Shown: positions 1,681 to 16,749 of the stretch, piece after piece
How positions within the stretch are numbered: the stretch's first letter is position 1
How the letters are laid out: every line of letters begins with the position of its first letter
DNA from: Myxococcales bacterium
GTDB lineage: Bacteria; Myxococcota_A; UBA9042
DNA length: 16,749 nucleotides
Assembly (NCBI GenBank): GCA_037441385.1
Contig: JBBISH010000131.1
Location: 1-16,749, forward strand
Direction: 5' to 3'
Made by a program: the position numbers and the translations under genes
Notes under the pieces: model-generated
Told to the model about the DNA's origin: nothing
The model's database searches: none
Seen by the model: the letters and a program-made list of their open reading frames with translations, nothing else

Positions 1681-1767
1681 ATTCGTCCGCCCCAAAGGCG
1701 GCGAATTTGCGGCCCACCCAGCAGGGGAGGCGAGGCGGAAACTCATTTCCGCTGACCGCCTCAGCGG
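1681..1767. other. Cluster of GC-rich hairpins downstream of the minus-strand hypothetical gene (possible 3'-end structure)
   Basis: ATTCG(T)CCGCC/GGCGGCGAAT stem at 1681-1706; three overlapping 7-bp stems at 1735-1741/1746-1752, 1732-1738/1756-1762 and 1749-1755/1761-1767. No clear U-tract. Confidence 0.4.
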
Positions 1768-1820
1768 CCGGGCCACACCAAATGCCACAAATCACGGCAG
1801 GTTTTGGGCGGTCGCGCGAC

Positions 1821-2675
1821 TCAGCCGTTGTTGCGCTTGCGGCGGCGGCGGTTGCGCTTGCGATCCCCGCCCGCCCCGGTCGCCGTTGCCTCGCCCTGCA
1901 CGGTGAGCGTGAGGGTCAGCGCCCCGCTGGCCTTCTTGGTCCGCAGCTCGCGCAGCGCGTCGCCGGCCAGCGCCAGGATCAGCTCGGCGGCGGTCTCGGC
2001 GCCTCCGCGGCGGGTCACGGTCACAGCCAACTTGGTGGGCTCGCCGTCGGCCGGACCGTCGTCCTCGTCGTCGTCGCACTCGTCGTCGATGTCGTCGCTC
2101 CCTTCGTCCTCGCCGTCCTCTTCCGCGGCGGCGGGCGGGGCCGGCGGCGGATCCGGCTGCTTGCGCAAGGCGTTGAGCTCGGCCAGCTCTTCGGCGTCCA
2201 ACTCCTCGCGAGTCATGCTGGGCACCTTGCCAAAGAGGACGTGGAAGCGCGGCGGCGGCAGGCCGCTGGTCTCGCACACCCGCGACCACAGGCGCTGCAG
2301 GGTCTTGTCGCGCAGCACCTGCAAGAACGCGGCGATGGTCCCGTCGGGCGCCATGGCGTTTTCGAGCGCGGTGTGGGCGTCGTCCAGGGCCTTGGTGGTG
2401 GCGGCGTCCACGGCGCTTACGGTGGCGTCGCGGCGCGCTTGCGAAAACCGCTGGTGGCCGTCGATCAGCTGACCGCGGGCAATCGCGTAGCCGCTCCATA
2501 GCACCTTGGCATAGGTGCGCAAGTACGGGTTTTGATGGTAGCTGAACTTGAGGAGGCCATCGGCCTCGCCCGTGCCGGCGCCCGACGATTTGCTGGTGGG
2601 CAGACCGGCCAGCGAACGTTCGAGGAACAGCAATTCCTCTTTGGCTAGCTGGGGTTGATTGGGGTTCTTGGACAT
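1821..2675 (-). CDS. Hypothetical protein (284 aa) with Pro/acidic low-complexity linker and Arg/Lys-rich C-terminal tail
   Basis: ORF 1821..2792 in the track; protein-like composition begins at ATG 2675 (MSKNPNQPQLAKEELLFLERSL). Contains EEDGEDEGSDDIDDECDDDEDD and ends RKRNRRRRKRNNG. No family recognised. Confidence 0.75.
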   Translation of the reverse strand: MSKNPNQPQLAKEELLFLERSLAGLPTSKSSGAGTGEADGLLKFSYHQNPYLRTYAKVLWSGYAIARGQLIDGHQRFSQARRDATVSAVDAATTKALDDAHTALENAMAPDGTIAAFLQVLRDKTLQRLWSRVCETSGLPPPRFHVLFGKVPSMTREELDAEELAELNALRKQPDPPPAPPAAAEEDGEDEGSDDIDDECDDDEDDGPADGEPTKLAVTVTRRGGAETAAELILALAGDALRELRTKKASGALTLTLTVQGEATATGAGGDRKRNRRRRKRNNG

Positions 2676-2941
2676 TGGTGGCACTCGCTGCAGGCCGCTC
2701 GGGCCGGCATGAACGGGTGATGGCTGCCGGTCGCGACGGTTGCGACTGCGGCGCCGGGACTCTACAAGCTCGCGGTGCGGCGGGCAAGCCAACTGCGCGA
2801 CGGACCGGCAGCCCAGCGATTTCCCCCCAGCCGATATGACAATCGAGTGACGTCTTGGCAGCCCAGCCCGCGCAAAATGCCGCGCGGCGGGCCCGCCCCA
2901 TGCGGCTCAGGCGACGCGGCGGCCATGGACTGGAGGGCGAG

Positions 2942-4807
2942 ATGGTGCTGGGACTAGAGGACATCGACCAACTGCTGGCCGACGAAGAAGCCGACGAGCT
3001 GGAGTACATCCACCTGACGTCGAACGAGACGCTGCTGTCGCCGCGGGCCCTCAAGGTCCTGTCGTCGCCGCTGGGCAATCGTTACCTGCTGGAACACCGC
3101 GACATGCGGCAGGATTCGCCGTCGCGCCTCAACGGCTTCATCTTCAAGGGCCTGAGCCGGGTCAACGCCATCGAGGCTTCGGCCGCCGAGGTGTGTCAAG
3201 AGCTGTTTGGCGCCAAATACGTGGAGTTTCGTTGCCTTTCGGGCCTGCACGCCATGCAGACCACCATGCTGTCGCTGACGGAGCCGGGCGACACCGTGAT
3301 GCGCTTTGGCATCGTCGATGGCGGGCACTTCGCCACCGAGCACCTGATCAAAGTGTTCGGCCGCAAAAGCTGCACCTACGGCTTTGACCGCGCGCGGCTG
3401 ACCATCGACATCGCCAAGACCGCCGAGATTTTCAAGCGCGAGAAGCCCAAGCTCCTGTATCTGGACGCGATGAACTACCTGTTCCCGTTCCCGATTCGCG
3501 AGCTGCGCGAGGTGGTAGGCGACACGCCGATCCTGTACGACGCCAGCCACACGCTGGGCCTCATCGCAGGCGGCCAGTTCCAGAACCCGCTGGCCGAGGG
3601 CGCCGACATTCTGCAGGCCAACACTCACAAGACCCTGTTTGGACCACAAAAAGGCATCATCCTGACCAACAACCGCGAGCTGATCGACCGCATCGGCTAC
3701 AACCTGTCGCAGGGCCTGGTGTCGAGCCAACACACCGCGTCGCTGCTGTCGCTGTTCATCGCCCTGCACGAGACGCGGCTGACCGGCAGGGCGTTTGCCA
3801 AGCAAGTGGTCGAAAATGCGCGAACTTTGGCCGAACGACTGGCCGCGCAAGGCGTGCCGGTGCTGGCCCGCCACGATGGGCAGTTTACCGATAATCATCA
3901 CTTTTTCATCAACTTGACTGGCGTGGCCTCGGCGGCCCACCAGCTCGAACGTCTGCTGCGCGCCCACCTGGTGGTGCAGCGTGGCATGCCGTTCCGCAAC
4001 GTGGACGCGCTGCGGGTGGGCGTGCAAGAAGTGACCCGGCGCGGCTACGGCCCCGGCGAGATGGCGCAACTGGCGGAATGGATGGCGGCCGTGCTGCACG
4101 GCGCCGAGCCCGAGGTGCTGGCGCCAGCGGTGCGGGCGATGGCCAGGCGCTTCGACCAGACCTATTACACGGGCGAAGCGGGCGACGGCACGTTGGATTT
4201 GCCCGCCATCCCGCCGCCGTCGGCCAAGGGGCGCTGGGTCGATTATCGTCACCTGGGCAACGAGTTTGCCATGAGCGACGACCAGTTTGCCGACATTCGC
4301 TCGCTGGGCGCTGCTGCGGGCGACTTCCCCAACCAGACCGATTCGACCGGCAATGTCAGCCTGCGCGCGGGCGAACGGGTGTTCGTGTCGAGCAGCGGCT
4401 CGTACATCAAGCACCTGGCCGACGGGCAAGTGGTGGAGCTGGACGCGGTGGATCCGAGCGGCGAGCTCATCGACTACCACGGCGCGGCGCTGCCCTCGTC
4501 CGAATCGCTCATGCATTTCTTGGTGTATCAAAGCGTGCCCGCCGGCGCGGTCATCCACACCCACTACCTGCTGACCAACCAAGAGGCAGCGGACTTTGGG
4601 GTGGTGGTGGTGCCGCCTCAGGAGTACGCCTCGATCGCCCTGGCGCGGGCGGTGGCCGAGGGCAGCAAGCGCAGCCGCATCGTGTACATCCAGAAGCACG
4701 GCCTGGTGTTCTGGGGCACCGACACTGCCGATTGCCTTGCGCAGGTCCACAACTTCATCCACAACCGCCCGCCACGCCGCGCCGCGGAGGCCGCCTATGC
4801 ATCCTGA
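2942..4807 (+). CDS. flFT: 4-fluorothreonine transaldolase-like didomain enzyme (PLP-dependent L-threonine transaldolase/SHMT-like domain + class II aldolase/adducin domain), 621 aa
   Basis: GGAGG at 2932-2936 precedes ATG 2942. N-domain motifs: HLTSNETLLSPRA, RYLLEH, EFRCLSGLHAMQTT, DGGHF, DAMNYLFPFP, DASHTLGLIAGG, QANTHK(230)TLFGPQKG (PLP lysine), VSSQHTAS, GVQEVTRRG. C-domain motifs: GNVS, SSGSYIK, PSSE..MH, HTH, KHGLVFW (metal-binding His triad). Architecture and motifs match Streptomyces FTase as I recall it; the symbol denotes homology, not proven activity. Confidence 0.88.
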   Translation: MVLGLEDIDQLLADEEADELEYIHLTSNETLLSPRALKVLSSPLGNRYLLEHRDMRQDSPSRLNGFIFKGLSRVNAIEASAAEVCQELFGAKYVEFRCLSGLHAMQTTMLSLTEPGDTVMRFGIVDGGHFATEHLIKVFGRKSCTYGFDRARLTIDIAKTAEIFKREKPKLLYLDAMNYLFPFPIRELREVVGDTPILYDASHTLGLIAGGQFQNPLAEGADILQANTHKTLFGPQKGIILTNNRELIDRIGYNLSQGLVSSQHTASLLSLFIALHETRLTGRAFAKQVVENARTLAERLAAQGVPVLARHDGQFTDNHHFFINLTGVASAAHQLERLLRAHLVVQRGMPFRNVDALRVGVQEVTRRGYGPGEMAQLAEWMAAVLHGAEPEVLAPAVRAMARRFDQTYYTGEAGDGTLDLPAIPPPSAKGRWVDYRHLGNEFAMSDDQFADIRSLGAAAGDFPNQTDSTGNVSLRAGERVFVSSSGSYIKHLADGQVVELDAVDPSGELIDYHGAALPSSESLMHFLVYQSVPAGAVIHTHYLLTNQEAADFGVVVVPPQEYASIALARAVAEGSKRSRIVYIQKHGLVFWGTDTADCLAQVHNFIHNRPPRRAAEAAYAS

Positions 4808-5762
4808 TTTCTTGCACCCGCTGGATTTGGACTCGCCGCTGCACACCGCCACACCGCAGTGGCACTCGCTGCCGATCTCGCGCACGGCTGGCAAGCCGAT
4901 CCATCTGAAAATCGAGGCGTTGCAGCCGGTGGGCTCGTTCAAGATCCGCGGCATCGGCCGGCTCTGCCAAAAGGCGGTGGCGGCGGGGGCGCGGCAGTTC
5001 GTGTCGTCGTCGGGCGGCAACGCCGGGGTGGCGGCGGCCTACGCGGGCAGTCAACTCGGTATCAAGACGACGGTTTACGTGTTCGCTGGCGTGCCCGAGA
5101 CGGCCAAGCTGCGCATGCAGGAGTTTGGTGCCGAGGTGGTGATGGCCGGGCCGACCTGGGCCGAGGCCCACGCCATGGCCAGTGAACTGGCTGAAAAGCA
5201 GGGCGCTTTCTACATCCACCCCTTCGATCACCCCGACCTCTGGGCCGGCCACAGCACGCTGGTCGACGAGGTGGTGGCCAGCGGCTACCGGCCCGACCTG
5301 GTGGTGGTGGCGGTGGGCGGCGGCGGCCTGCTGACCGGCCTGCTGGACGGCCTGGACCGGCACGGTCTGAGCAAGACCAAGGTGTTGGCGGTCGAGACCT
5401 TTGGCACGGAGTCGCTGCACGCGGCGCTGAAGGCCGGCCAGCCGGTGACCCTGCCGCGCATCAATTCGGTGGCGAAAACCCTGGGCGCGGCCCGGGTTTG
5501 CGACGCGGCCTTCGAGCGAGCGCAGCGGCACGCGGTGGAGTCGCTGGTGGTGACCGACGAGCAGGCGCTGCGGGCCTGCCGGCAATTTGCCTTGGACCAT
5601 CGGCTGTTGGTCGAGCCGTCGGCGGGGGCCGCCCTGTCGGCGGTGTACGAGGGGCTGGGCGCGGTGGCGCAGGCCCGCGACGCGCTGGTCATCGTGTGCG
5701 GCGGCGTGGGAATTGCCTTGCGCGACGAGGTGTTCGCTTATGCGCCGCGGCTGCCGGACTAG
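4797..5762 (+). CDS. PLP-dependent L-serine/L-threonine dehydratase (ammonia-lyase), fold type II, SDS/CHA1-like, no regulatory domain, 321 aa
   Basis: GGAGG at 4786-4790, ATG 4797 overlapping the previous gene by 11 nt. Motifs: LKIEALQPVGSFKIRGIG (PLP Lys), SSGGNAG, HPFDHPDLWAGH, AVGGGGL, LVEPSAGA, VIVCGG (Cys as in eukaryote-type serine dehydratases). Confidence 0.88.
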   Translation: MHPDFLHPLDLDSPLHTATPQWHSLPISRTAGKPIHLKIEALQPVGSFKIRGIGRLCQKAVAAGARQFVSSSGGNAGVAAAYAGSQLGIKTTVYVFAGVPETAKLRMQEFGAEVVMAGPTWAEAHAMASELAEKQGAFYIHPFDHPDLWAGHSTLVDEVVASGYRPDLVVVAVGGGGLLTGLLDGLDRHGLSKTKVLAVETFGTESLHAALKAGQPVTLPRINSVAKTLGAARVCDAAFERAQRHAVESLVVTDEQALRACRQFALDHRLLVEPSAGAALSAVYEGLGAVAQARDALVIVCGGVGIALRDEVFAYAPRLPD

Positions 5763-5780
5763 GCGAACGAGAGGAACTCC

Positions 5781-6995
5781 ATGAAAACTCCTGACGTCAT
5801 CGTGGTGGGCGGCGGCATCTCGGGCCTGGCGCTGGCGTTCTTTGCCGCGCGCGACGGCAAACAGGTCCTGGTGCTGGAAAGCAGTGACCGCATCGGCGGT
5901 TGCCTGGACTCGCGCCGCCACGGCGACTACTGGTTCGAGCTGGGCGCCCACACCTGCTACAACTCGTACACCACCCTCATCGAGATCCTGGAGGCCACCG
6001 GCCTTATGGGCAAGCTGGTGCCGCGCGGCGAGGCCCGCAAGGTCTTTGCCCTGTTGCGCGACGGCAAGATCAGCACCATGGGGCCGATGTCGGTGATGTT
6101 CCAGTTCAACTGGCTGGAGCTGCTGGTGTCGCTGCCGATGGGTCTGTTTGCCAGCAAGACCGGCCGGAGTACGGCGGAGTACTACGGCAAGCTGTTGGGC
6201 CGCAACAACTTTGCCAAGGTGCTGGGGCCGTTTTTGTCGGCAGTGCCGTCGCAGGCGGCGGATGGCTTCCCGGCCGAGGGCGCGGGCAGCCTGTTCAAGA
6301 AGCGGCCGCGCCGCGAAGATGTCATCAAGACTTGGACTCTGCAGGGTGGGCTGGGCACGGTGGCCGAGGCAATCGCTACGGTGCCGGGCATCGAAGTGCG
6401 CACGAATTGTGCGGTGCAACATGTCGCGCGGGCAGATGGCGGCTATCAGGTGACAACGGCGAAGGGCGAGGTGCTCGCAGTGCCCCAATTGGCGATGGCG
6501 GTGCCCCCGGCGACGGCGGCGCGGCTGCTGCAGAGCGCGGAACCCCAGCTAGTGAAAGCGCTTTCTGCCATCCAGATGGCCGCGGTCGATACGCTGGGCG
6601 CGGTGGTGGCCAAGGCGGAGCTGAACCTGCCCGACCTGGCCTTTGTGGTGCCGCAGCAGGACACGTTCTTTTCGGCGGTGACCCGCGACGCCGTGCCGGA
6701 CCCCGACCGCCGCGGCTTCGCCTTCCACTTCCGGCCCGGTCAGAGCGCCGCGCTGCAGCGGCAGCGCATGGTCGAAGTGCTTGGTGTGCCAGAGGAAAGT
6801 CTGCAAGCGACCTTCAGCCGCCATACCGACCTGCCGTCGCCGCAGGTGGGCCATGGCGAGCGGGTGGCGGCCCTGGACGCGGCGGTGGCGGGCAAGCCGC
6901 TGGCGCTGTGCGGCAACTACTTCGTCGGGCTGGCCATCGAGGACTGTGTGGCGCGGTCCAAGGCGGAGTGGTTGCGGCTGAAGGCGGCGGGGTAG
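5781..6995 (+). CDS. FAD-dependent oxidoreductase, protoporphyrinogen/coproporphyrinogen oxidase (HemY)-like, flavin amine oxidase superfamily, 404 aa
   Basis: GAGGA before ATG 5781. Rossmann motif VVGGGISGL...VLVLESSDRIGG, FELGAHTCYNSY, TLQGGLGTVAEAI, and C-terminal LCGNYFVGLAIEDCV typical of HemY-like proteins. Shorter than canonical HemY; substrate uncertain. Confidence 0.8.
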   Translation: MKTPDVIVVGGGISGLALAFFAARDGKQVLVLESSDRIGGCLDSRRHGDYWFELGAHTCYNSYTTLIEILEATGLMGKLVPRGEARKVFALLRDGKISTMGPMSVMFQFNWLELLVSLPMGLFASKTGRSTAEYYGKLLGRNNFAKVLGPFLSAVPSQAADGFPAEGAGSLFKKRPRREDVIKTWTLQGGLGTVAEAIATVPGIEVRTNCAVQHVARADGGYQVTTAKGEVLAVPQLAMAVPPATAARLLQSAEPQLVKALSAIQMAAVDTLGAVVAKAELNLPDLAFVVPQQDTFFSAVTRDAVPDPDRRGFAFHFRPGQSAALQRQRMVEVLGVPEESLQATFSRHTDLPSPQVGHGERVAALDAAVAGKPLALCGNYFVGLAIEDCVARSKAEWLRLKAAG

Positions 6996-6997
6996 GC

Positions 6998-7041
6998 GCC
7001 CACTCTGCGCCTCTGGCCCCTATTTGTGGCGCGGGGTGGGC
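6998..7041 (+). terminator. 14-bp stem-loop immediately after the operon's last stop codon (3'-end structure, no U-tract)
   Basis: GCCCACTCTGCGCC (6998-7011) pairs with GGCGCGGGGTGGGC (7028-7041), with two G-U pairs that form only on the + strand; 16-nt loop. Confidence 0.5.
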
Positions 7042-7467
7042 CTCATCGTGTGCCGCTTGACACCTTACGGCACCTGGGGTTGCCTACGGATGTCGTGCTC
7101 AACGAGTCCCAGCCCATCTGGCGTCACCGCCGGACGAGGCGCTTCCCGCAGACGTGAACCAGACTGGGCAGGACCGGCAGTGGAGTCGGCGCCGAACGCG
7201 TGGAGGAGCAAACCCGAGAAAGTTTAGGCGACCGCGCGCAGCTTTCACGCCCGCCGCTCATCCGCTGCAACGCCTGAGTCCGTAGCTCTCGACACGAGCA
7301 CCCAACTGGTGCCGGTTTTCCATAGAGTGCTGCCCACTGATCGATGGGGACCGCGCGCGCGATCCCAAGCATGGTGATGCGACCACCAGGATGCCCTAAG
7401 GTTGGAACCTAACAATTTCATGACGAGTTCATCGGCGTGGGGATTTCGGCGGTGGGTTTGGGCGCCC

Positions 7468-7499
7468 TTGACAAGCGATAAGCTCATCCAGTAAATAAT
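7468..7499 (+). promoter_or_regulatory. Candidate sigma-70-type promoter for the lipoprotein operon
   Basis: Perfect TTGACA at 7468-7473 followed after 18 bp by AT-rich TAAATAAT (7492-7499), unusual in this GC-rich DNA. The best -10 hexamer (AATAAT) sits at a suboptimal 20-bp spacing. Confidence 0.4.
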
Positions 7500-7714
7500 A
7501 CCTACGCGCTACCAGTGGGGGCTGGTGGACGTGGGGAACGACGCCGCGCGGTGGGGTTGGCAAACTCCAGACGCGCGCCGCAGCACTCCAGTAATCCTTA
7601 GGCATATTAGGCACATCCTTGTGTCCGCAGAGCCGCTAGGCCGGCCAGCGCATACGTTTGCGCGGACACCGAGGCGGGTCAAGGCGCGGCCATCCAGCCA
7701 CGAGGCGATTGGGC

Positions 7715-9754
7715 ATGAATCACGGACTCCTGTCGTTCTTGAACGACGCAACGCCAACGCGGGCCCGCGGCGCCGATCCACTCTCGTGGCGGCGAACGTT
7801 GGCTCTGGTCGTCGCCTCGCTGACGCTGCTGCACTGCGGGGGTGAGCCGGCCGGCGCGCCCGCCGATGCCGGCACCGGCTTGGACTCGACCCAGGGAGTG
7901 GACGGCGGTGCGGACGCCCCCTTGGCCGTGGACGCGAGCAAGAAGGACGGCAGCAGCAAGGACGTCAAGTACAGCGACGCCCAGCTGTTTCCAGACCTGC
8001 CCGCCAACACCTCGCCGACCGTGGAGTGGCTCACCCCGCTGGAAGGCGCGATGGTGCCGGCCGACACGCCGCTGGTGGCCACCGCGACCATCGCCGATGG
8101 CGAGAGCCCGCCGGCGGACCTGGGCTTGGCCATTACCGTCACGGATCTGCTCGGCGACAATGCCAAGCTTTTCAGCGAGAACGAAGGCCTGGTGGCGTTC
8201 AAGGTGCCGGGGCTGGCGGTGGGGCCGCACAAGCTGATCCTGAGCGTGACCGATGGCCAGGGCGGGATGGCGACGGCCGAGAGGACCGTAACCGCCGTGG
8301 CGCCGCTGCCCGAGCCCACGGTGACCATCAGCCCGGCCAAGCCGGTGGCCGGCGAGCCGCTGCACGCCACGGTGGAAGGGACGTGGCCGCCGGGCACCCA
8401 GGTGTCCGTGCAGTGGACCCGCAACGGCGAGCTGCTGCAGTGGGCGACCAGCCCCGACATCGCCGCGGGCGTGGTCGTGCGCGGCGAGGAGTGGCGCGTG
8501 TACGCCCAGGCGGTGGGCATTGGCACCGCATCGCCCGCAGTGCAGGCCGCGGTGGTCGTGGGCAACACGCCGCCTGGCGCGTTTTCGCTGGCCCTGGACC
8601 CCACCCAGGTCCACGTAGCCGGGAGCACGTGGTGCGGTCTGGCGGCGCCCAGCGTCGACGTCGACGGGGATCCAGTGGCCTACACGGTCCAGTGGGCCCT
8701 GGACGATGTGCCGCTCGCGGCGGACGTGACGGCCAGCCTGCTGGTGCTCGGGTTTGCCAAGGAAGGCAACTTCGCGGTCAACGTGCCGTGCAGCGTGGGG
8801 CAAGTGCTCACCTGCACCGTCACGGCCGACGACGCCCACGGCGGCACGGCCACCGCCAAGGTCAGCACCACGCTGGCGGCCAACCCGGCGTGCAGCACCG
8901 ACGCCAACCCGTGCAGCCCGGCCGCCGACTGCTCGCCCACGGCCACCGCCCCGGTCACCTGCACCTGCAAGCCCGGTTTCGCGGGCAACGGCATCGCCTG
9001 CGCCGACGTGGACGAGTGCGTCGACCTGGCCAACGCCTGCACTGCCGACGCCGTGTGCACCAACAGCGAGGGCAGCTACAGTTGCGCCTGCAAGCCCGGA
9101 TTCCAGGGCGACGGCAAGACCTGCAACGACATCGACGAATGTGCCGAAGTGCCAGGACCTTGCGCGCTCGCCGCCGACTGCACCAACACCGCCGGCAGCT
9201 ACACCTGCACCTGCAAGGGGGGCTACGCGGGCGATGGCTACTCGTGTACGAACGTCGACGAATGCGCCGTGGGCCTGGCGCAGTGCGCCACGACCGCCGT
9301 CTGCACGGACACCAACGGCAGCTACCTGTGCGCATGCACAAGCGGTTTCACGGGCGACGGCTCGACCTGCACCGACATCGACGAGTGCGCCAGCGTGGAG
9401 CTCGCCAACTGCGCCACCGAGGCGGTCTGTCTGAACCTGCCCGGCTGGCACACCTGCACCTGCAAGGACGGCTACGTTGGCAGCGGCGATGTCTGCGAAG
9501 ACGTGGACGAATGCGCCGCCGCCACCCCGGTGTGCAGCGCCAACGCGACCTGCACCAACAGCCCCGGCGACTACCAATGCGCCTGCAACCCGGGCTACGT
9601 GGGCGACGGCCTGCAGTGCGCCGACGTGGACGAATGTGCAACTGGCCAGGACAACTGCAGCATTTTCGCCAGCTGCACGAACAACGACGGCGGGTTCTCC
9701 TGTGAGTGCCAGCCGGGCTACGCCGGCGACGGTACCAACTGTGTGGCGCAATGA
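7715..9754 (+). CDS. Putative lipoprotein with Ig-like beta-sandwich region(s) and 7 tandem EGF modules, 679 aa
   Basis: GAGG upstream of ATG 7715; signal-like WRRTLALVVASLTLLH-C41-GG; NTSPT/NTPP-started beta-rich blocks (LTCTVTADDAHGG); C-terminal D[VI]DEC...CTN..GSY.C.C..GY.GDG..C repeats. Confidence 0.88.
   Translation: MNHGLLSFLNDATPTRARGADPLSWRRTLALVVASLTLLHCGGEPAGAPADAGTGLDSTQGVDGGADAPLAVDASKKDGSSKDVKYSDAQLFPDLPANTSPTVEWLTPLEGAMVPADTPLVATATIADGESPPADLGLAITVTDLLGDNAKLFSENEGLVAFKVPGLAVGPHKLILSVTDGQGGMATAERTVTAVAPLPEPTVTISPAKPVAGEPLHATVEGTWPPGTQVSVQWTRNGELLQWATSPDIAAGVVVRGEEWRVYAQAVGIGTASPAVQAAVVVGNTPPGAFSLALDPTQVHVAGSTWCGLAAPSVDVDGDPVAYTVQWALDDVPLAADVTASLLVLGFAKEGNFAVNVPCSVGQVLTCTVTADDAHGGTATAKVSTTLAANPACSTDANPCSPAADCSPTATAPVTCTCKPGFAGNGIACADVDECVDLANACTADAVCTNSEGSYSCACKPGFQGDGKTCNDIDECAEVPGPCALAADCTNTAGSYTCTCKGGYAGDGYSCTNVDECAVGLAQCATTAVCTDTNGSYLCACTSGFTGDGSTCTDIDECASVELANCATEAVCLNLPGWHTCTCKDGYVGSGDVCEDVDECAAATPVCSANATCTNSPGDYQCACNPGYVGDGLQCADVDECATGQDNCSIFASCTNNDGGFSCECQPGYAGDGTNCVAQ
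8891..9742 (+). repeat. Seven EGF-like repeats (six with calcium-binding [DN]-[VI]-D-E-C consensus), ~123-bp period
   Basis: Six-Cys modules counted in the translation; modules 2-7 start DVDEC, DIDEC, NVDEC, DIDEC, DVDEC, DVDEC. Confidence 0.9.
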
Positions 9755-9762
9755 GGTGGGGC

Positions 9763-12700
9763 ATGACCAGCGGCTTTTCTTTTGGAGTCCGGCCCCTTGC
9801 GGTGGCCATGCTGCTTTTGTTCGCCTCGGCCTGTGGCGATGGCGCGTCGAGCGCGCGAGTCACCGCGCCGGCCGATGCCCACGGCGACGCACCCACGGGT
9901 GACCTGGCGACGGGCGACTTGGGCAGTGCGGACGCGAGCGGCGACGTCGCGGTGCACCTGCCGGGCACGCCCACCGACGTGTCGATCGACTACCTGGCGG
10001 CCGGCCAGCTGAAGATGACCCCCGCCCAGCAAAAGGCGGCGATCGACAAGCTGAAGGCGGGCGGCGAGTTCATCGATGTCCACCTGCGCCCCGAAGTCGT
10101 GATGCTGGACGCCAAGGTCACGGACCAAGCCGTGGTGCTGCCGGATCAGATCCGCCTGCCCAAGGCCGGCAACGAGGCCTTGCTGCAGCTCAAGCCCGGC
10201 GCGCCGATGATCGGCAATCGCTCGGCGTCGGGCAACAACCCGTTCGGTTTCTTGCGCAAGGTCACGTCGGTGCAAGAGATCGGCGGCGAGATCGTCATCG
10301 AGACCAGCAAGGCCAAGTTCTACGAGGTGCTGTCGGGCGCCATGGCGATGAAGATCGACGCCGACGACCTGCAGCTGCTCGACACTTCGGGGGTGGACGA
10401 AGGCATGTACTTTGCGGGCATGGACGGCAAGTTGAAGCCCAGCCCTGCTGGGAGCCGCCGGCGGGCGCGCTGGGGCCGCTTCCGCGCACCGCTGCAGGAC
10501 TTGGACGCCGACGTGACCTACACCGGCGACTGGAGCGCCAGCGCCTCGTTCAACGCGCTGACGTTCTCCAAGAGTGTCTCCGCCGGCAAGGCCACCCTGA
10601 CGCTGAGCGGCACGGCGAGCGCGACCAGCAATTTCTCGTTCAAGCCCTCGTTCTACCTGCAGATGGGCGTGGACTGGTTCGACTTCGAGTATTTGAACGT
10701 GGGCGCTTCTGGCCAGCTCGACCTGGGCGGCGTCATCGACGTCAACCTGCAACTGGCCCTGAGTGGCGCGGTAGACACCAGCAAGGACGCTTCGGATGCC
10801 AAGGACTCGCTCAAGAAGTCTCCGTCCAAACCCGACAAGAAATCGTTCGAGATCGCCGAGCTGGGCCCCTTCGTCGGGCCGACCATCCCGACCCCCATCC
10901 CGATTCCGACCACATTCAAGATCAGCATCATCGCCGACTGCTCCTTCACCATTTATGGCGACCTCCAGTCCAAGATCGAGGGGACGGTGTCGACCAGCGC
11001 CGGCTTTGGCGTCAAGTACGAAGACCCCGACTCGTGCGACTCGGACGACGACTGCTGGACGACGTGCGTGAACGGCGTCTGCGGCGTGGGCGGCGACGGC
11101 TGGACCCTGACGTCGGCGGCCACCTGGAACACCACCAAGACGGTCTCGTTGACCCTGGGCGGCGGCGTCATCGCCGAGTGCGGGGTCACGCCGCAGATCG
11201 AGTGGCTGCTGGCCGACGTCGCGGGACCTTCGATCGGGGTCCGCGGGGCGGTGCGCGGCACCCTGGACTATGCGAGCACGTGCCCCGACTCGACCACGAT
11301 GCTGACTTCGCAGAAGCCCGACGGGGCAACCACACTGACGTTCGAAGTCGGCGTGGACATCGTCATCGGCGCAACGATCGATTTTCTGGTCACGGAGTTC
11401 AACTTCTCGTTCACCGTCTACGAGAAATTCTGGACGATCTGGACCAACACCTGGAATTTCATCGGCGGCGGGTTGGGCTGGTGCCAGGCCGGCTGCGACA
11501 ACGGCTACAAGAACAACCAGGAGACCGACGTCGACTGCGGCGGCTATGTGTGCAATGCCTGCGCCGAGGGCAAGGGCTGCAATTTCAACGGAGACTGTGC
11601 AACGTTCAATTGCACGAGCGGCAAGTGCGGCCCAAAACTGTGCGGCAACGGCGTCTTGGATGGCAAAGAGACGGACCTCGACTGCGGCGGGCCGGCGTGC
11701 TCGATCAAGTGTGGCCTGGGCAAGACCTGCGAGGACAACTCGGACTGCGGCAAGGACTCGACGGGCAAGGCATTGGGTTGCCACCTCACCGTTCCCGGTA
11801 ACCTTTCGATCGGCATGTCGTCCAAGGGCACTTGCCAAGTTCCGACCTGCACGGACTTGTGGACGGGACCCGGCGAGACCAGCGTTGACTGTGGTAGCGG
11901 GTGCCTCTGCCCGGGCAAGCTGTCTTGCCAAAGTAGCTATCAGTGCCTGTCGACTCAGCAATGCTACTACGACGAAAAGCTGGCAAAGAACTACTGTGTG
12001 CCTACGATCAGCGCGGCCTGCTACGGCCAGGCCAACGGCTACAAGGACGGCGACGAGACCGACGTCGACTGCGGCGGCAGTTGTGTCGGTGCGATCAGCA
12101 ACTTGATGCTGTGCGGCCGGGACAACCAGGACATGGAAGTGTGCGGTCCGCAGATGTTCAAGTGCGCCATTGGCGGCGCCTGCAAGACAAGCCTGGACTG
12201 CAAGTCGGGGGCGTGCAACAGCACAACCAAGAAATGCACCGACAAATGCACGGACGGGGTCTTCTCTCCCGACACCGGCGAAACGGATGTCGACTGCGGC
12301 GGTTCGTGCGCAACCAAGTGCGCGACCAGCAAACACTGTAAGATCACTGCGGACTGCGCCGCCGGCTTGGTCTGCACCGGATCACCGTCCACGTGCCAGG
12401 TCTCGCTGTTGACCAATAGCATCAAAGACGGCGACGAGACCGACGTCGACTGCGGCGGCACCAACCCGGCCAAGTGCGCGCTGACCAAGGCCTGCAAGGT
12501 CGACGGCGACTGCGGGAGCGGCATCTGCTCGGTCGGCCTGTTGTGCGTGGACTCGATCTGTAAGAACGGCAAGCTGGACCGCGCCAGCGGCCACAAAGAA
12601 GGCTATATCGACTGCGGCGGCGACTGCCCGGCGTGCGCGATCGGTTCGCCCTGCTACCCCAGCGGCAACGCGCTGTACGTGGCCGACGAGTGCCCGACCG

Positions 12701-15700
12701 GTACCGCCTGCGTGCCTGCGGTGGTGGGCGGCGTCGCCTCGACCACGACCGGCACGTGCGCCGCGGCCAGCTGCACCGACGGCGTGAAGAACGGCGCCGA
12801 GGCGGACATCGACTGCGGCGACGCATTGGGCAAGTGTCCGCCCTGCGGCCTTGGCAAGGGCTGTATCGACAACGAAGCCGATACTGCCTATTCCAAGACG
12901 TGCAAGCAAACCGCCGGCAGCCCCCTGGCCTGCGTCCCGGACGGACCTACCTGCCAGCCCGCGTGCGCCGACGGCGTCAAGACCCTGAAAGAGTCCGACA
13001 TCGACTGCGGCGGCCCGCTGCGCTACTGCGCCACCCGCTGTGCGTTGGGCAAGGGCTGCGACGCCAGCACCGACTGCGCCTCGGGCATTTGCGCGTTTGG
13101 CAAGTGCGCGACCTCGACGTGCCCCAACGGGACGCAGGATGGCACGGAGGCCGACGTCGACTGCGGCGCACCCACCTACAAGTGCGACCCCTTCTGCAAG
13201 TCGAGCCCCACGAAACCCTGCGCGAATGACTGCTCGACGTGCAACAAACGCTGCGGGGTCGGCAAGAAGTGCCTGATCGGCGCCGACTGCGAGAGCGGCT
13301 TTTGCTCCACCGACGGAAAATGCGTCGCGACGGAATGCGAGACCGGTTCGGCCTGCGGCGGTGCGTGCCCCAAGTGCGGGACAGGCAAGCCATGCACTAC
13401 GGGCGATCAGTGCCTTTCGGGCGTGTGCCAGAAGAACGGCCTGTGTGGGCCCTCGTGCTCGGATGGCCTGCAGAACGGCGACGAGGGCGACATCGATTGC
13501 GGCGGCGCGTGCCCCACGAGCTGCGCCATCGGCAAGACCTGCAACAAGCACGCAGACTGCAGCTCCGGCTCATGCAGCTCCAAAGGATTCTGCATCAACC
13601 CGTCGTGCAGCAACGGCGAGTGGGACCCGATGGAAGCGGGCATCGACTGCGGCGGCCTGGCCTGCAAGCAGGCGTGTCCGGCGCAGTCGACCTGTCAGAA
13701 GGACAGCGACTGTCTGTCTGGCAAGTGCGACGCGAACCTCCATGTTTGCCTCATGCCGTCCTCTTGCAACGACAGCAAACTGGACGGCAATGAGACAGGG
13801 ACCGACTGCGGCGGGGTGTGCCTGGGCTGCGCCGTCGGCGTGGCCTGCGCGGTCAACACGGACTGCATAAGCCACAGTTGCGTGGGCGCGTCGGGGTCCG
13901 GCTCCAAGACGGTCCTCGGCAAGTGCGGCAACGCCCCGGCGGTCTCCTGCACAGACAAAGTGGTCAACGGCAGCGAAACCGACATCGACTGCGGCGGCAC
14001 CTGCACCACCAAGTGCGTATCCGGCAAGAAGTGCCTGATTTCAGCTGATTGCACGTCGGGCCTGGGCTGCGACCCGGGTACCCACAAGTGCTCGTCAAGC
14101 ACCTGCGCCGACGGCGTCAAGAGCGGCGACGAGTCCGACGTGGACTGCGGCGGCTCGTGCGTGGCCAGGTGTGGAGTCGGCAAGGTCTGCACCGTGGAGT
14201 TCGACTGCAAAAGCAACTTCTGCAACATGACCACCGGCAAGTGTGCCGCCGATGCGTGCTCGGACGGCGTCCTGTCCCTAGGCGAGGCGGACGTGGACTG
14301 CGGCGGCAAGTGCGCCAAGTGCGCAACCGGCCAAAAGTGCCAGGCGGGCGAGGCTTGCGCGTCTGGCTTCTGCCACGCGACCCTCAAGACGTGCGCGGCT
14401 GGATCGTGCGGCGACGGTGCAGTGGACATCACCGAGACCGACATCGACTGCGGCGGCTCGACCTCGACTTGCAGCACCCGCTGCCTCGTGGGTCAGATCT
14501 GCAAGCTAGACTCGGACTGCCTTTACAATTCGTGCCTGAGTGGCAAGTGCTCCAACGCGTTCTGCAGCAATGGCAAGCTCGATGTGGCCAACCTGGAGAC
14601 GGGGACCGACTGCGGCGGCATCTGCACGGCCTGCGCCGACGGCCAGAAGTGCACAGTGAGCACGGACTGCAAGTCGGGCCTGTGCAGCGCCGGGCTGTGC
14701 AAGAACGTGACCTGCTACGACAAAGTGAAAAGCGCAGGCGAAACCGACGTAGACTGCGGCGGCACCTGCGTGACCAAGTGCGCGACCGGCAAGGCGTGCA
14801 CCATTGGCGCCGACTGCATCAGCACGACGTGCTCGTCGGTCAGCAAGCTGTGCGTGGCCGGCGCGTGCAGCGATCAAGCGCTGTCGCCCGGCGAGACCGA
14901 CATCGACTGCGGCGGCACCACCTGCACGCAGAAGTGCGCCACCAACCAAAACTGCAAGGCCGACACGGACTGCACCAGCGGCATCTGCTCGGTGGCGGGC
15001 AAGTGCGTCACGACCACCTGCGCCGACGGCAAGAAATCCGGCACCGAGACCGACATCGACTGCGGCGGCACCTGCGGCAAGTGCGCCACCAGCAAGCTCT
15101 GCAAGCTGGGCGGCGACTGCCAGAGCGGCATCTGCTCGCTGGGCGGCCTGTGCGTGGCCAGCCTGTGCGAAGACGGCAAGGTCTCGGGCGGCGAGACGGG
15201 CGTGGACTGCGGCGGCGGTTGCCCCAATAAGTGCAAGAACGGCGAGGCATGCGGCGGCACGGGCGATTGCCAGAGCGGGATCTGCTCGGCCAGCAACCTG
15301 TGCGTCGACTCCATGTGCAAAGACGGCGTGATCTCGGGCGGCGAGAGCGACGTGGACTGCGGCGGCCCGTGCGCCCAGAAGTGCGCCACGGCGGCCCTGT
15401 GCAAGCTCGACACCGACTGCGCGAGCGGCGCGTGCGGCGCCAACGGCAAGTGCGCGACCAGCGCCTGCAGCGACGGCAAGCTCGACGGCGCCGAGACCGA
15501 CATCGACTGCGCCGGCGGCTGCCCGGACACGTGCGCCCTGTCCAAGGCCTGCAAGGCCGGCAGCGATTGCCAAAGCGGCGTATGCTCCACCACCGGCAAG
15601 TGCGTCGCCACCACGTGCGAAGACGGCAAGCAGAACGGCACCGAGACCGGCCTTGACTGCGGCGGCGCGTGCCCAACGGGCTGCAGCGTCGGCGGCGGTT

Positions 15701-16749
15701 GCGCGGCGGGCAGCGACTGCCAGAGCGGCCAGTGCGGCGTTGCCGGCAAATGTGTCGCCACGGCCTGCGAAAATGGCAAGAAGGACGGCAGCGAGTCGGC
15801 CATCGACTGCGGCGGGTCGTGCCCAACGGCGTGCGCCGATGGCCAGACCTGCGTCGCCGGAGCTGATTGCGCGTCGACCGTGTGCGCGGCCGTGTCCAAG
15901 ATCTGCGTCGCCACCACCTGCAAAGACGAGGTCAAGTCCGGCACCGAGAGCGACGTGGACTGCGGCGGCACCTGCACGGCCAAGTGCAGCGGCGGCAAGG
16001 CGTGTCAGGTGAACACCGACTGCATCTCGGCCCAGTGCGGCACAGGCAACCTGTGCGTCGCCTCGGCGTGCGACAACGGCAAGCTCGACGCGGGCGAAAC
16101 GGACATCGACTGCGGCGGCCCGACCTGCGGCGCCTGTGCGCTGACCAAGGCGTGCGCGGCCGGCAGCGACTGCCTGAGCAGCGTCTGCTCGGCCGGCCTG
16201 AAGTGCGTCGCCAACACCTGCCTGGACGGCAAGAAGGGGGTCGGCGAGACCGACGTGGACTGCGGCGGCACCTGCGCGGCCAAGTGCGGGTTGACCCAGG
16301 GCTGCGGCGTGGGCGGCGACTGCGCCAGCGGCATCTGCAGTGCGGGCAAGGCTTGCGTGGCCAGCTTGTGCCTGGACGGGGCCAAGACCGGCGACGAGAG
16401 CGACGTGGACTGCGGCGGCAGCTGCACCAGCAAGTGCGCCACCGGCAAGATCTGCGGCCAAGACACCGACTGCACCTCGACCTTCTGCGCGGCCCAGAGC
16501 CTGCTGTGTGTGGCCAATGGCTGCCTGGATCAAGCGGTTTCGGGCACCGAGAGCGACGTGGACTGCGGCGGCAGCTGCAGCACCAAGTGCGCGCAAGGCA
16601 AGAAGTGCAAGGCCACCAGCGACTGCGCAACCGGAGTCTGCAACGCGCTGGGCGTGTGCGCGGCGAACCTGTGCGGCGACGGCGTCAAGAACGGCACCGA
16701 GACCGACATCGACTGCGGCGGCAGCTGTGCGCAAAAGTGCGCGACCACC
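9763..16749 (+). CDS. Giant cysteine-repeat lipoprotein (>=2,329 aa, 3'-truncated): lipobox, beta-rich N-terminal domain, >=33 'ETDVDCGG' 8-Cys repeats
   Basis: Frame +1 translated by hand has no stop from 9751 to the window end. Start is ATG 9763 (GAGGT 5 nt upstream) or ATG 9751 (ATGA overlap with the upstream stop). Signal: [24 protein letters not shown]24-GD. Absent from the ORF track because it has no stop in the window; the ORFs listed here are off-frame or antisense shadows. Confidence 0.92.
11494..16749 (+). repeat. Tandem array of ~50-aa Cys-rich units, consensus CxDGxKxGxETD[VI]DCGGxCxxKCxxGKxCxxxxDCxSGxCxxxxxC
   Basis: 33 CG[GSDA]/CAG-centred units counted (last one partial). In the distal part the DCGG cysteine codon recurs at 15208, 15358, 15508, 15658, 15808, 15961, 16111, 16261, 16411, 16564 and 16714 (150-153 bp period). 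Confidence 0.93.

Follow-up and report, generated by a model that had tools for sequence, protein, structure and literature searches.

A co-inherited gene pair for an FTase-family threonine transaldolase and a serine dehydratase-type enzyme in a family of Myxococcota, with a proposed role in aldehyde capture

Two overlapping genes and their products

We analysed a 16,749-nt stretch of DNA from a Myxococcales bacterium (GenBank assembly GCA_037441385.1, contig JBBISH010000131.1), hereafter called the window, and in particular two overlapping genes in it, which encode a two-domain L-threonine transaldolase of the fluorothreonine transaldolase (FTase) family and a pyridoxal 5'-phosphate (PLP)-dependent dehydratase of the serine dehydratase (SDS) type. 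The window corresponds to contig C131 in a genome of 6.6 Mb and 91% completeness, and its GC content is 63-73% when read in 1-kb windows. The public records of its relatives are titled 'uncultured Myxococcales bacterium', 'Myxococcota bacterium' or 'Deltaproteobacteria bacterium'. The pair is composed of the following features.

2932..2937, + strand: GGAGGG, ribosome-binding site of the transaldolase gene, read from the sequence, 4 nt 5' of its ATG
2942..4807, + strand: gene of a two-domain FTase-family L-threonine transaldolase, 621 aa (TIGR04506; PF00464 + PF00596)
2960..4084, + strand: S domain, serine hydroxymethyltransferase (SHMT) fold with the PLP site (Pfam SHMT, residues 7-381)
4343..4747, + strand: A domain, class II (FucA/DrdA/MtnB-type) aldolase fold with zinc (Pfam Aldolase_II, residues 468-602)
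4786..4790, + strand: GGAGG, ribosome-binding site of the dehydratase gene, read from the sequence, 6 nt 5' of its ATG and within the 3' end of the transaldolase gene
4797..4807, + strand: 11-nt overlap ATGCATCCTGA of the dehydratase start with the transaldolase stop, read from the sequence
4797..5762, + strand: gene of an SDS-type, fold-type II PLP-dependent beta-hydroxy amino acid dehydratase/deaminase, 321 aa, with no regulatory domain (PALP, SDSL)

The open reading frame (ORF) of the transaldolase extends from the ATG at 2942 to the TGA at 4805-4807, and its start fits the N-termini of homologues (MVLGL...) in alignment A1, which comprises 28 two-domain proteins with 41-86% identity to that of the window. 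The dehydratase starts with the ATG at 4797-4799. Direct reading of the sequence confirmed the 11-nt gene overlap, with GGAGG inside the 3' end of the transaldolase gene, that had been noticed in an initial annotation of this DNA; the overlap of the dehydratase start with the transaldolase stop (ATGCATCCTGA) implies translational coupling of the two genes.

Against the NCBIfam equivalog TIGR04506 ('fluorothreonine transaldolase'), the transaldolase scored 773.1 bits (cut-off 650) over profile positions 2-604 of 609, and PF00464 (residues 7-381) and PF00596 (468-602) were found on one chain. This score and the SHMT and Aldolase_II domains bear out its initial identification as a two-domain transaldolase of the FTase family. 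The protein is 49-52% identical to the FTases of Streptantibioticus (Streptomyces) cattleyicolor, Nocardia brasiliensis and Actinoplanes sp. N902-109. Like the known FTases (FlFT of S. cattleya, P0067; FTaseMA of Streptomyces sp. MA37), it consists of an SHMT-like PLP domain, a linker with an invariant RW and a class II aldolase-like zinc domain, and it keeps the PLP and metal residues. In the 28 sequences of alignment A1, residues D200, H203 and R358 of the S domain are invariant, and H129 and K230 (in the THK motif) are nearly so; in the A domain, the metal ligands H539, H541 and H586, the glutamate E521 and N471 are invariant, and G486 is invariant or nearly invariant. A-domain residues N471, S485-G486 and S519-S520-E521 align with N29, T43-G44 and S71-S72-E73 of E. 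coli FucA, and the zinc-site histidines with its H92 and H94; we take these FucA residues, numbered from the alignment, to belong to its metal, catalytic-glutamate and phosphate sites.

The best solved relatives of the S domain are the SHMT of M. jannaschii (4bhd, 3.3e-56) and ObiH (7k34, 1.7e-40). A search of a PDB copy for a solved two-domain FTase found none. ObiH/ObaG and LipK are, like the S domain, SHMT-fold PLP enzymes with L-threonine as the glycyl donor, but they have no aldolase-like domain and are set in antibiotic gene clusters. Single-domain relatives of this kind are 30-41% identical to the window protein.

The dehydratase matched Pfam PALP (PF00291; 231.9 bits, 1.4e-68). Its best solved relatives are human SDS-like protein (2rkb, 1.3e-71) and human and rat L-serine dehydratases (4h27, 1p5j and 1pwe); residues 13-309 align with SDS/SDSL at 1e-67 to 1e-71, and identity to the mammalian SDS/SDSL proteins is about 50%. 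Alignment with 2rkb and 4h27 placed in register the lysine motif SFK49IRG, the loop S70-SSGGNAG, the loop G174-GGGL (GGGGL) and the C-terminal CGG, and K49, N75 and G175-G177 are invariant in 32 sequences. With the PALP match, the end-to-end alignment and the catalytic motifs intact, the enzyme can be retained as an SDS-type fold-type II dehydratase, as initially annotated. Like its solved relatives, it has a length of about 320 aa and a single catalytic domain; it carries no ACT-like regulatory domains, and matches to IlvA span the catalytic part only. None of the curated NCBIfam equivalog cut-offs considered (threonine/serine dehydratase, TdcB, IlvA, EutB, BhcB and threo-3-hydroxyaspartate ammonia-lyase) was reached, the best being NF006094 with 216.6 bits versus 331.

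Conservation and genomic context of the pair

To judge by linkage, the two genes belong together. Among species-representative genomes, 25 loci encode relatives of the transaldolase. Where the relative is at least 60% identical, an orthologue of the dehydratase (60-97% identical) lies directly downstream in all 12 assessable loci (L027, which ends inside the transaldolase gene, was left out of the count); where it is 49-53% identical, a dehydratase homologue was found in none of 12 loci (11 actinomycete records and one metagenome-assembled genome, MAG, labelled Micrarchaeota). In a sample of the phylum, the transaldolase is present in 13 of 401 genomes, namely 12 of the 29 of the window's family (the window's own genome counted) and one of a second family; the dehydratase adjoins it in 12 of 12 loci besides that of the window, 11 of which duplicate loci found before. 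Among loci on metagenome contigs, all three assessable ones with at least 60% identity (L049, identical L050, and L052) have the dehydratase downstream; 10 other two-domain loci and 40 single-domain relatives all lack it there.

In a quick maximum-likelihood search with IQ-TREE on 35 two-domain and 5 single-domain sequences, the dehydratase-linked transaldolases formed one clade (14 rows, SH-aLRT 97), although the outgroup branches are long and the result should be taken with care. Because the two-domain family has a polytomy at its base, nesting of the clade inside the fluorinase-linked FTases is not claimed. Taken over the representative genomes, the phylum sample and the metagenome contigs, the clade has 16 distinct loci, and in all 16 the dehydratase gene is directly 3' of the transaldolase gene. 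The overlap of its ATG with the transaldolase stop measures 11 nt in seven loci and 8 nt in another seven; the remaining two have gaps of 75 and 190 nt (the dehydratase starts in L010-L012 were corrected by eye).

Presence and absence agree with linkage. In the window's family, both genes occur in 13 of 37 genomes and neither occurs in the other 24; a search of the 37 genomes for the dehydratase returned orthologues at 62-100% identity in the same 13, the sole other match being a 30%-identical paralogue. Some of the 24 pair-lacking genomes are only 58-77% complete, so that a few of these absences are uncertain. The identities of transaldolase and dehydratase to the window proteins drop in parallel from locus to locus. 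In a collection of 5.8 billion proteins, the transaldolase has 18 clusters at 59% identity or above, after which identity falls to 54% or less; the dehydratase has 20 clusters at 60% or above and then passes, at 56% or less, into a very large, multi-phylum SDS-like family. The initial annotation had asked for a gene-neighbourhood search that might have confined the pairing to a single genome; on these counts it extends well beyond one. These results show that the pairing arose once and established the pair as a conserved, co-inherited and translationally coupled unit rather than a chance arrangement. When the transaldolase (A1) and the dehydratase (A2) were modelled as a complex, the score was 0.00 against a mark of 0.32, which is evidence neither way.

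Both members of the pair carry residues of their own. Compared with 77 other two-domain proteins, the transaldolase clade differs at five positions, where it has S27, A125, I136, A331 and A401. Position 125, four residues before the PLP-stacking histidine, is Lys in 86% of the other members but Ala in 94% of the clade (K125A). The linked dehydratases form a discrete subclade found only beside the transaldolase, and four positions separate 20 of them from 100 other SDS-like proteins; three of the four (P96F, T98G and T99V) share one otherwise conserved loop, in which residue 96 is Pro in 99% of the other proteins and Phe in the linked ones. This change of the loop at residues 96-99 from P-x-T-T to F-x-G-V, by which the window dehydratase differs from SDS/SDSL, is compatible with a changed substrate, presumably the product of the transaldolase. 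A literature search on the SDS substrate loop turned up nothing usable. The clade-specific changes in the two enzymes would fit a substrate change, without naming the substrate.

Two pair-bearing loci, L008 and L013, come from records titled 'uncultured Enterobacteriaceae bacterium'. Identical sequences are present in genomes of the window's family (G144 and G402), and the titles are probably wrong. Separately, in a 552-aa protein from a 2.3-kb contig (P0112; PF00464+PF00291), a single-domain transaldolase-like part is preceded by the C-terminal end of a PALP-family protein. The fusion may be genuine, or two neighbouring genes may have been joined where the contig ends. As an S-domain-only relative with only a C-terminal PALP fragment, on a short contig, P0112 was not counted as a transaldolase-dehydratase fusion.

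We then consider the relation of the pair to fluorine metabolism. The fluorinase family (PF01887) was found in none of 14 pair-bearing genomes (13 of the window's family, including its own, and one of the second family). It occurs in two of the 37 family genomes, both without the pair. Absence of a fluorinase from the window's own genome is likely but not proven, the genome being 91% complete. Using as queries fluorinase and editing-protein sequences from metagenome loci, with their Pfam domains confirmed, we found a fluorinase and/or an aminoacyl-tRNA-editing gene like FthB (which we take to be the fluorothreonyl-tRNA deacylase) within 6 kb in 16 of 22 non-clade two-domain loci but in none of the 16 clade loci. 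The six non-clade loci with neither gene are L014, L022, L024, L053 and the short contigs L056 and L058. None of the 22 non-clade loci has the dehydratase. The clade thus differs from the FTases in having no fluorinase in the genome, no FthB-like gene nearby, a dehydratase gene at its 3' end and a separate position in the tree with residues of its own; its product is presumably consumed, not accumulated. It is a repurposed, fluorinase-free branch of the FTase family, and the pair most likely lies outside fluorometabolite biosynthesis. Members of the clade (18 protein clusters with at least 59% identity) are annotated 'fluorothreonine transaldolase' yet come without a fluorinase, so that the annotation is misleading as evidence of biological fluorination.

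The flanks of the pair vary, and no gene recurs beside it across lineages in the loci examined. In the window, a third gene follows 18 nt 3' of the dehydratase gene:

5781..6995, + strand: flavin adenine dinucleotide (FAD)-dependent amine-oxidase/protoporphyrinogen-oxidase-like oxidoreductase, 404 aa (PF01593, 4.6e-21)

This is a lineage-specific third gene of the operon. Orthologues of it (76-84% identity) are confined to two genomes of the same genus, G374 and G058, where they too adjoin the pair and are followed by acetate kinase and phosphotransacetylase genes; homologues at 43-49% identity are found elsewhere in genomes, pair-bearing and pair-free alike. One genus has three acyl-CoA dehydrogenase genes and a gene for a B12-binding protein upstream of the pair. 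In one sublineage (L025) cysK is directly upstream, and a PALP gene takes the equivalent place in L049; another sublineage has TonB/ExbBD genes upstream and genes for cysteine desulfurase and encapsulin downstream. An ornithine-cyclodeaminase-family gene lies about 320 nt downstream of the pair in L052. A scan of positions 1700-7800 found no terminator-like site between the three operon genes, no promoter-like site, and one terminator-like site outside the operon, which is below the shuffle expectation. In the window and 10 related loci, a scan for RNA families found no riboswitch upstream of the pair. With its variable flanks and no upstream riboswitch, the module looks self-contained and probably uses common metabolites.

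Proposed reaction and alternative readings

On balance, we favour the reading that the pair is a self-contained, co-inherited two-step module, which would convert L-threonine and an aldehyde into a beta-hydroxy amino acid and then into a 2-oxo acid. In the first step, as family membership suggests, the S domain would cleave L-threonine, free acetaldehyde and hand over the PLP-bound glycyl unit to an acceptor, which would be a small and probably strongly hydrated aldehyde, giving a small beta-hydroxy-alpha-amino acid; the zinc-bearing A domain may help with the aldehyde, as proposed for FTaseMA. In the second step, for which family membership and gene linkage speak, the SDS-type dehydratase would turn the beta-hydroxy amino acid into the 2-oxo acid and ammonium. 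The net reaction would be L-Thr + R-CHO -> acetaldehyde + R-CH2-CO-COOH + NH4+. Of the pathway drawn in the initial annotation, aldehyde capture followed by deamination is the part best supported, by linkage and by the enzyme families, whereas release of halide found no support.

The SDS-type partner suggests a small first-step product, serine or else a threonine substituted at position 4. Glycolaldehyde, formaldehyde, glyoxylate and haloacetaldehydes all form hydrates, as a matter of general chemistry, and each would be a candidate acceptor if hydrated aldehydes are what the A domain serves. We rank glycolaldehyde or formaldehyde as acceptor ahead of haloacetaldehydes, 2-(methylthio)acetaldehyde and glyoxylate. 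Glycolaldehyde would give 4-hydroxythreonine and then 4-hydroxy-2-oxobutanoate; formaldehyde would give serine and then pyruvate. According to the searched text of the study on FTaseMA, kcat/Km of that enzyme is 7473 M-1 min-1 for fluoroacetaldehyde, 4096 (about half) for glycolaldehyde, 1056 for chloroacetaldehyde and 841-1635 for three other aldehydes (PMC7162832). The same text mentions neither formaldehyde nor glyoxylate. It further reports that glycine is no donor, that zinc is bound 1:1, and that the K237A, H551A, H598A and N484A variants keep 13-28% activity, with no more than 14-28% left in the A-domain mutants; for the A domain it suggests a role in removing water from fluoroacetaldehyde hydrate (PMC7162832).

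Several points weigh against the two-step module. The catalytic roles of full-length clade members are assigned from family membership, and an SDS-type enzyme that deaminates L-threonine may compete with the first step. None of the residues aligned with the sugar-phosphate site of FucA is lost from the A domain; the role assumed here does not call for such a site, and the true substrate set may be different. With no recurrent neighbour, there is no transporter, aldehyde source or consumer of 2-oxo acids that would hint at the substrate, nor did the scans for RNA families, promoters and terminators find an upstream riboswitch or other regulatory clue. The distribution is patchy (13 of 37 family genomes and 13 of 401 phylum genomes), which marks the pair as accessory. 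Finally, no replaced function is visible: the Fe-S serine dehydratase family PF03313 occurs in seven of 37 family genomes (all six of genus g2 and one of g8) without tracking the pair, and the threonine-aldolase family PF01212 in 33 of 37, pair or no pair.

Other readings account for part of the evidence. One is parallel catabolism of threonine and serine, in which the enzymes would be merely co-regulated, the transaldolase acting mainly as a threonine aldolase (threonine to glycine and acetaldehyde) and the dehydratase as an ordinary L-serine/L-threonine deaminase. Myxobacteria feed largely on amino acids, the dehydratase is about 50% identical to mammalian SDS/SDSL with unchanged active-site motifs, and catabolic genes flank the pair in some lineages (acyl-CoA dehydrogenases in L005, L006 and L008; acetate kinase and phosphotransacetylase in L003 and L004). 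We nevertheless regard this as rather unlikely: joint presence in 13 and joint absence from 24 of 37 genomes, with overlapping genes in 14 of 16 loci, goes beyond the expectation for mere co-regulation; threonine-aldolase-family genes already exist in most family genomes; FTaseMA does not use glycine as a donor in the searched text of its study (PMC7162832); and the linked dehydratases form a subclade with an altered, otherwise conserved loop. The initial annotation also had halogenated aldehydes in view. In that reading haloacetaldehydes would be captured as 4-halothreonines and then deaminated and dehalogenated, in a detoxifying or catabolic route or as resistance to 4-fluorothreonine from neighbours. 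A threonine deaminase that defluorinates 4-fluorothreonine has reportedly been described by Wu and Deng in 2020. The transaldolase scores above the curated cut-off for fluorothreonine transaldolase, other members of its parent family sit beside fluorinases, FTaseMA uses fluoro- and chloroacetaldehyde (searched text of PMC7162832), and fluorinase clusters are so widespread in metagenomes (see below) that 4-fluorothreonine may be commoner in nature than thought. All the same, a role in handling halogenated aldehydes appears improbable. The lack of a fluorinase in the 14 pair-bearing genomes leaves no internal source of fluoroacetaldehyde; the FthB-like editing gene, a companion of FTases elsewhere, is missing from all 16 clade loci; the loci examined showed neither a fluoride riboswitch nor a neighbour resembling a dehalogenase or fluoride exporter, let alone a recurrent one; and K125A departs from the residue usual in the rest of the family. 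Judged by record titles, the hosts are MAGs from lakes, groundwater and wastewater, where haloacetaldehydes would be no obvious regular substrate. 

Two further readings concern biosynthesis and salvage. The fold-type II enzyme might perform beta-replacement, racemisation or epimerisation in making an amino acid for a specialised natural product, for the other characterised threonine transaldolases (FTase, LipK and ObiH) all belong to natural-product pathways in the searched text of PMC10495429, and racemases and beta-replacement enzymes are among the weaker solved-structure matches of the dehydratase. True dehydratases match best by far (2rkb at 1.3e-71 versus serine racemase at 6.9e-23), no neighbours for nonribosomal peptide or polyketide synthesis, ligation, tailoring or export recur, the variable flanks are housekeeping-like, and the product of the large ORF downstream in the window is no synthetase but a Cys-rich repeat protein outside any Pfam family; biosynthetic use is accordingly the most improbable of the alternatives. 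Almost as hard to credit is an oxygen-independent methionine salvage, in which the A domain would cleave 5-methylthioribulose-1-phosphate into dihydroxyacetone phosphate and 2-(methylthio)acetaldehyde, the S domain would make 3-hydroxymethionine with L-threonine, and the dehydratase would yield 4-methylthio-2-oxobutanoate, the last intermediate before methionine. The FucA-aligned metal, catalytic-glutamate and phosphate-site residues of the A domain, invariant in the 28 sequences, would suit it, as would the substrates of the structural relatives DrdA and MtnB, 5-deoxy- and 5-methylthio-ribulose-1-phosphate (searched text of PMC7162832). MtnA is present in 35 of 37 family genomes, MtnB in 29 and the acireductone dioxygenase ARD in 28, and all five family genomes that are at least 90% complete and have neither MtnB nor ARD carry the pair; the position of cysK in L025, and likewise of the PALP gene in L049, also counts in its favour. 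However, eight of the 13 pair-bearing family genomes, the window's own included, keep both MtnB and ARD, and the five losses amount to about three independent events. Across the phylum, MtnA is found in 373, MtnB in 127 and the pair in 13 of 401 genomes; MtnA without MtnB is thus the commonest state, and loss of MtnB needs no pair. No mtnA, mtnP or mtnK adjoins the pair in any locus, the context of mtnA (beside dnaG and a peptidase gene) is conserved and uninformative, and no S-adenosylmethionine riboswitch was found in the window and 10 related loci. In the window's genome, mtnB adjoins the acireductone dioxygenase gene (G000:C69:23967-25100).

The two-step module may also be seen as part of something larger. 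The 'homoserine cycle' is a synthetic pathway, and the pair might be the core of a natural counterpart, a threonine-recycling cycle that assimilates C1 or C2 aldehydes; we offer this as a long shot. L-Threonine would give its glycyl unit to formaldehyde or glycolaldehyde and leave as acetaldehyde, bound for acetyl-CoA; the dehydratase would convert serine into pyruvate, or 4-hydroxythreonine into 4-hydroxy-2-oxobutanoate; and the latter would be re-aminated to homoserine and returned to threonine by the ordinary ThrB/ThrC. If true, such a cycle would turn an aldehyde into acetaldehyde without loss of carbon and without folate. In a variant, an A domain that is a true sugar-1-phosphate aldolase and feeds 2-(methylthio)acetaldehyde would make the pair an oxygen-independent route of methionine salvage.

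A natural precedent for the logic of the two-step module is the beta-hydroxyaspartate cycle, with the aldolase BhcC and the dehydratase BhcB. There too an aldol-forming PLP enzyme is followed by a fold-type II PLP dehydratase that acts on the fresh beta-hydroxy amino acid, and the ornithine-cyclodeaminase-family gene of L052 belongs to the same family as the imine reductase BhcD. The window dehydratase differs from BhcB (114 bits versus an equivalog cut-off of 550), and the aldol enzyme has a fold unlike that of BhcC and takes threonine in place of glycine as its donor; an aminotransferase partner is missing. A closer chemical parallel is man-made. As described in the part of the preprint available, an engineered one-pot cascade of L-threonine transaldolase, phenylserine dehydratase and aminotransferase works in vitro, taking an aldehyde and L-threonine to a beta-hydroxy amino acid and on to a 2-oxo acid, with a dehydratase picked to spare L-threonine (bioRxiv 10.1101/2024.12.06.627276). 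The cascade draws on unrelated source organisms, aryl aldehydes, an S-domain-only transaldolase and a different dehydratase, whereas the pair in the window is a natural overlapping operon. The authors of the cascade remark, in the same part, that checking the same genomes for such dehydratases and transaldolases may be worthwhile (bioRxiv 10.1101/2024.12.06.627276). In line with the initial annotation, which knew of no such pairing, a literature search with subscription-only papers outside its scope found no description of a natural transaldolase-dehydratase pair.

One member of the clade has appeared in print. Jones et al. (2023) took 'DbTTA' from the FTase cluster of a similarity network and found it inactive (PMC10495429); it is MBI5609283, of length 382, from contig JACRCU010000288.1 (PMC10495429, supplement 2), and in the parts of that work available it is the sole clade member tested. 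The contig is that of locus L004 (L004:3-1148), where the transaldolase gene runs off the contig end. The DbTTA protein (P0017, 382 aa) is 88% identical to the window transaldolase over the part present, and it begins at a residue aligned to window position 241, past the PLP lysine. As a contig-edge fragment without that lysine, DbTTA is uninformative, in its inactivity, about the clade.

Should the two-step module prove true, it would be the first natural case of a transaldolase product consumed at once by a dedicated, co-evolving dehydratase, and a catabolic or assimilatory use of transaldolase chemistry. The threonine transaldolases characterised so far all serve the making of antibiotics or toxins. 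It would surprise specialists in transaldolases and fluorine enzymology, although it resolves no long-standing question by itself. In biocatalysis, the clade is a natural source of a transaldolase that comes with its own matched dehydratase. For the pair to work, that dehydratase has to withstand threonine at millimolar levels; such tolerance is the property that the engineers of the transaldolase-dehydratase-aminotransferase cascade had to seek.

FTase-family loci elsewhere and other features of the window

The metagenome contigs, of 33-66% GC, contain compact clusters of a fluorinase (PF01887+PF20257), an FthB-like editing protein and a two-domain FTase, at L062:240-6590, L064:2495-7917, L065:5887-11515, L063:2498-7950, L057:488-3969 and L055:5989-12527. 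Those in L062, L063, L064 and L065 also carry a conserved protein of 616-712 aa with no Pfam family; the cluster in L064 adds a threonyl-tRNA-synthetase-like gene, and in L055 the fluorinase is preceded by a PNP_UDP/NB-ARC/TPR fusion protein. The occurrence of such clusters in low-GC and other non-actinomycete contigs widens the likely range of 4-fluorothreonine producers, which may be far more widespread than the known actinomycetes.

A third kind of FTase-family context is that of L014:2228-6869, from a MAG labelled Candidatus Micrarchaeota. There an FTase-family gene (52% identical) is followed by genes for a radical SAM protein, a PF01212 protein and a GNAT acetyltransferase, with an AsnC-type regulator upstream; fluorinase, editing gene and dehydratase are all absent within the locus. 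Yet another context is found in L053 (30% GC), with an AsnC regulator, a vault-like protein and a xylose-isomerase-like TIM barrel.

In L025, the cysK-transaldolase-dehydratase genes are preceded, at a distance of about 4 kb, by a cobalamin riboswitch (positions 1844-1985; 33 bits, gathering score 31.5), which itself stands before genes of proteins with no Pfam family. In the window's genome, a stand-alone class II aldolase gene, one of three in that genome (G000:C6:86888-87418; L046:1387-2544), adjoins an EutN/CcmL-like microcompartment vertex gene, which suggests a bacterial microcompartment containing an aldolase that would release an aldehyde.

The remaining features of the window surround the operon:

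2-1342, - strand: Cys-rich repeat protein of at least 447 aa, no Pfam match
1821-2792, - strand: divergent gene of a 323-aa protein with a long acidic stretch, no Pfam or NCBIfam match
7531-7584: sub-threshold match to a CRISPR (clustered regularly interspaced short palindromic repeats) repeat in the scan for RNA families
7658-9754, + strand: 698-aa protein with seven EGF-type domains
9706-16749, + strand: open-ended ORF of at least 2348 aa with Cys-rich repeats of about 49-50 aa, in tandem periods of 147-150 nt, no Pfam family

The 323-aa acidic protein is kept (76% identity) only in the closest relative that covers that side, L003 (= L037). The three large Cys-rich proteins that flank the operon (2-1342, 7658-9754 and 9706-16749) look secreted.

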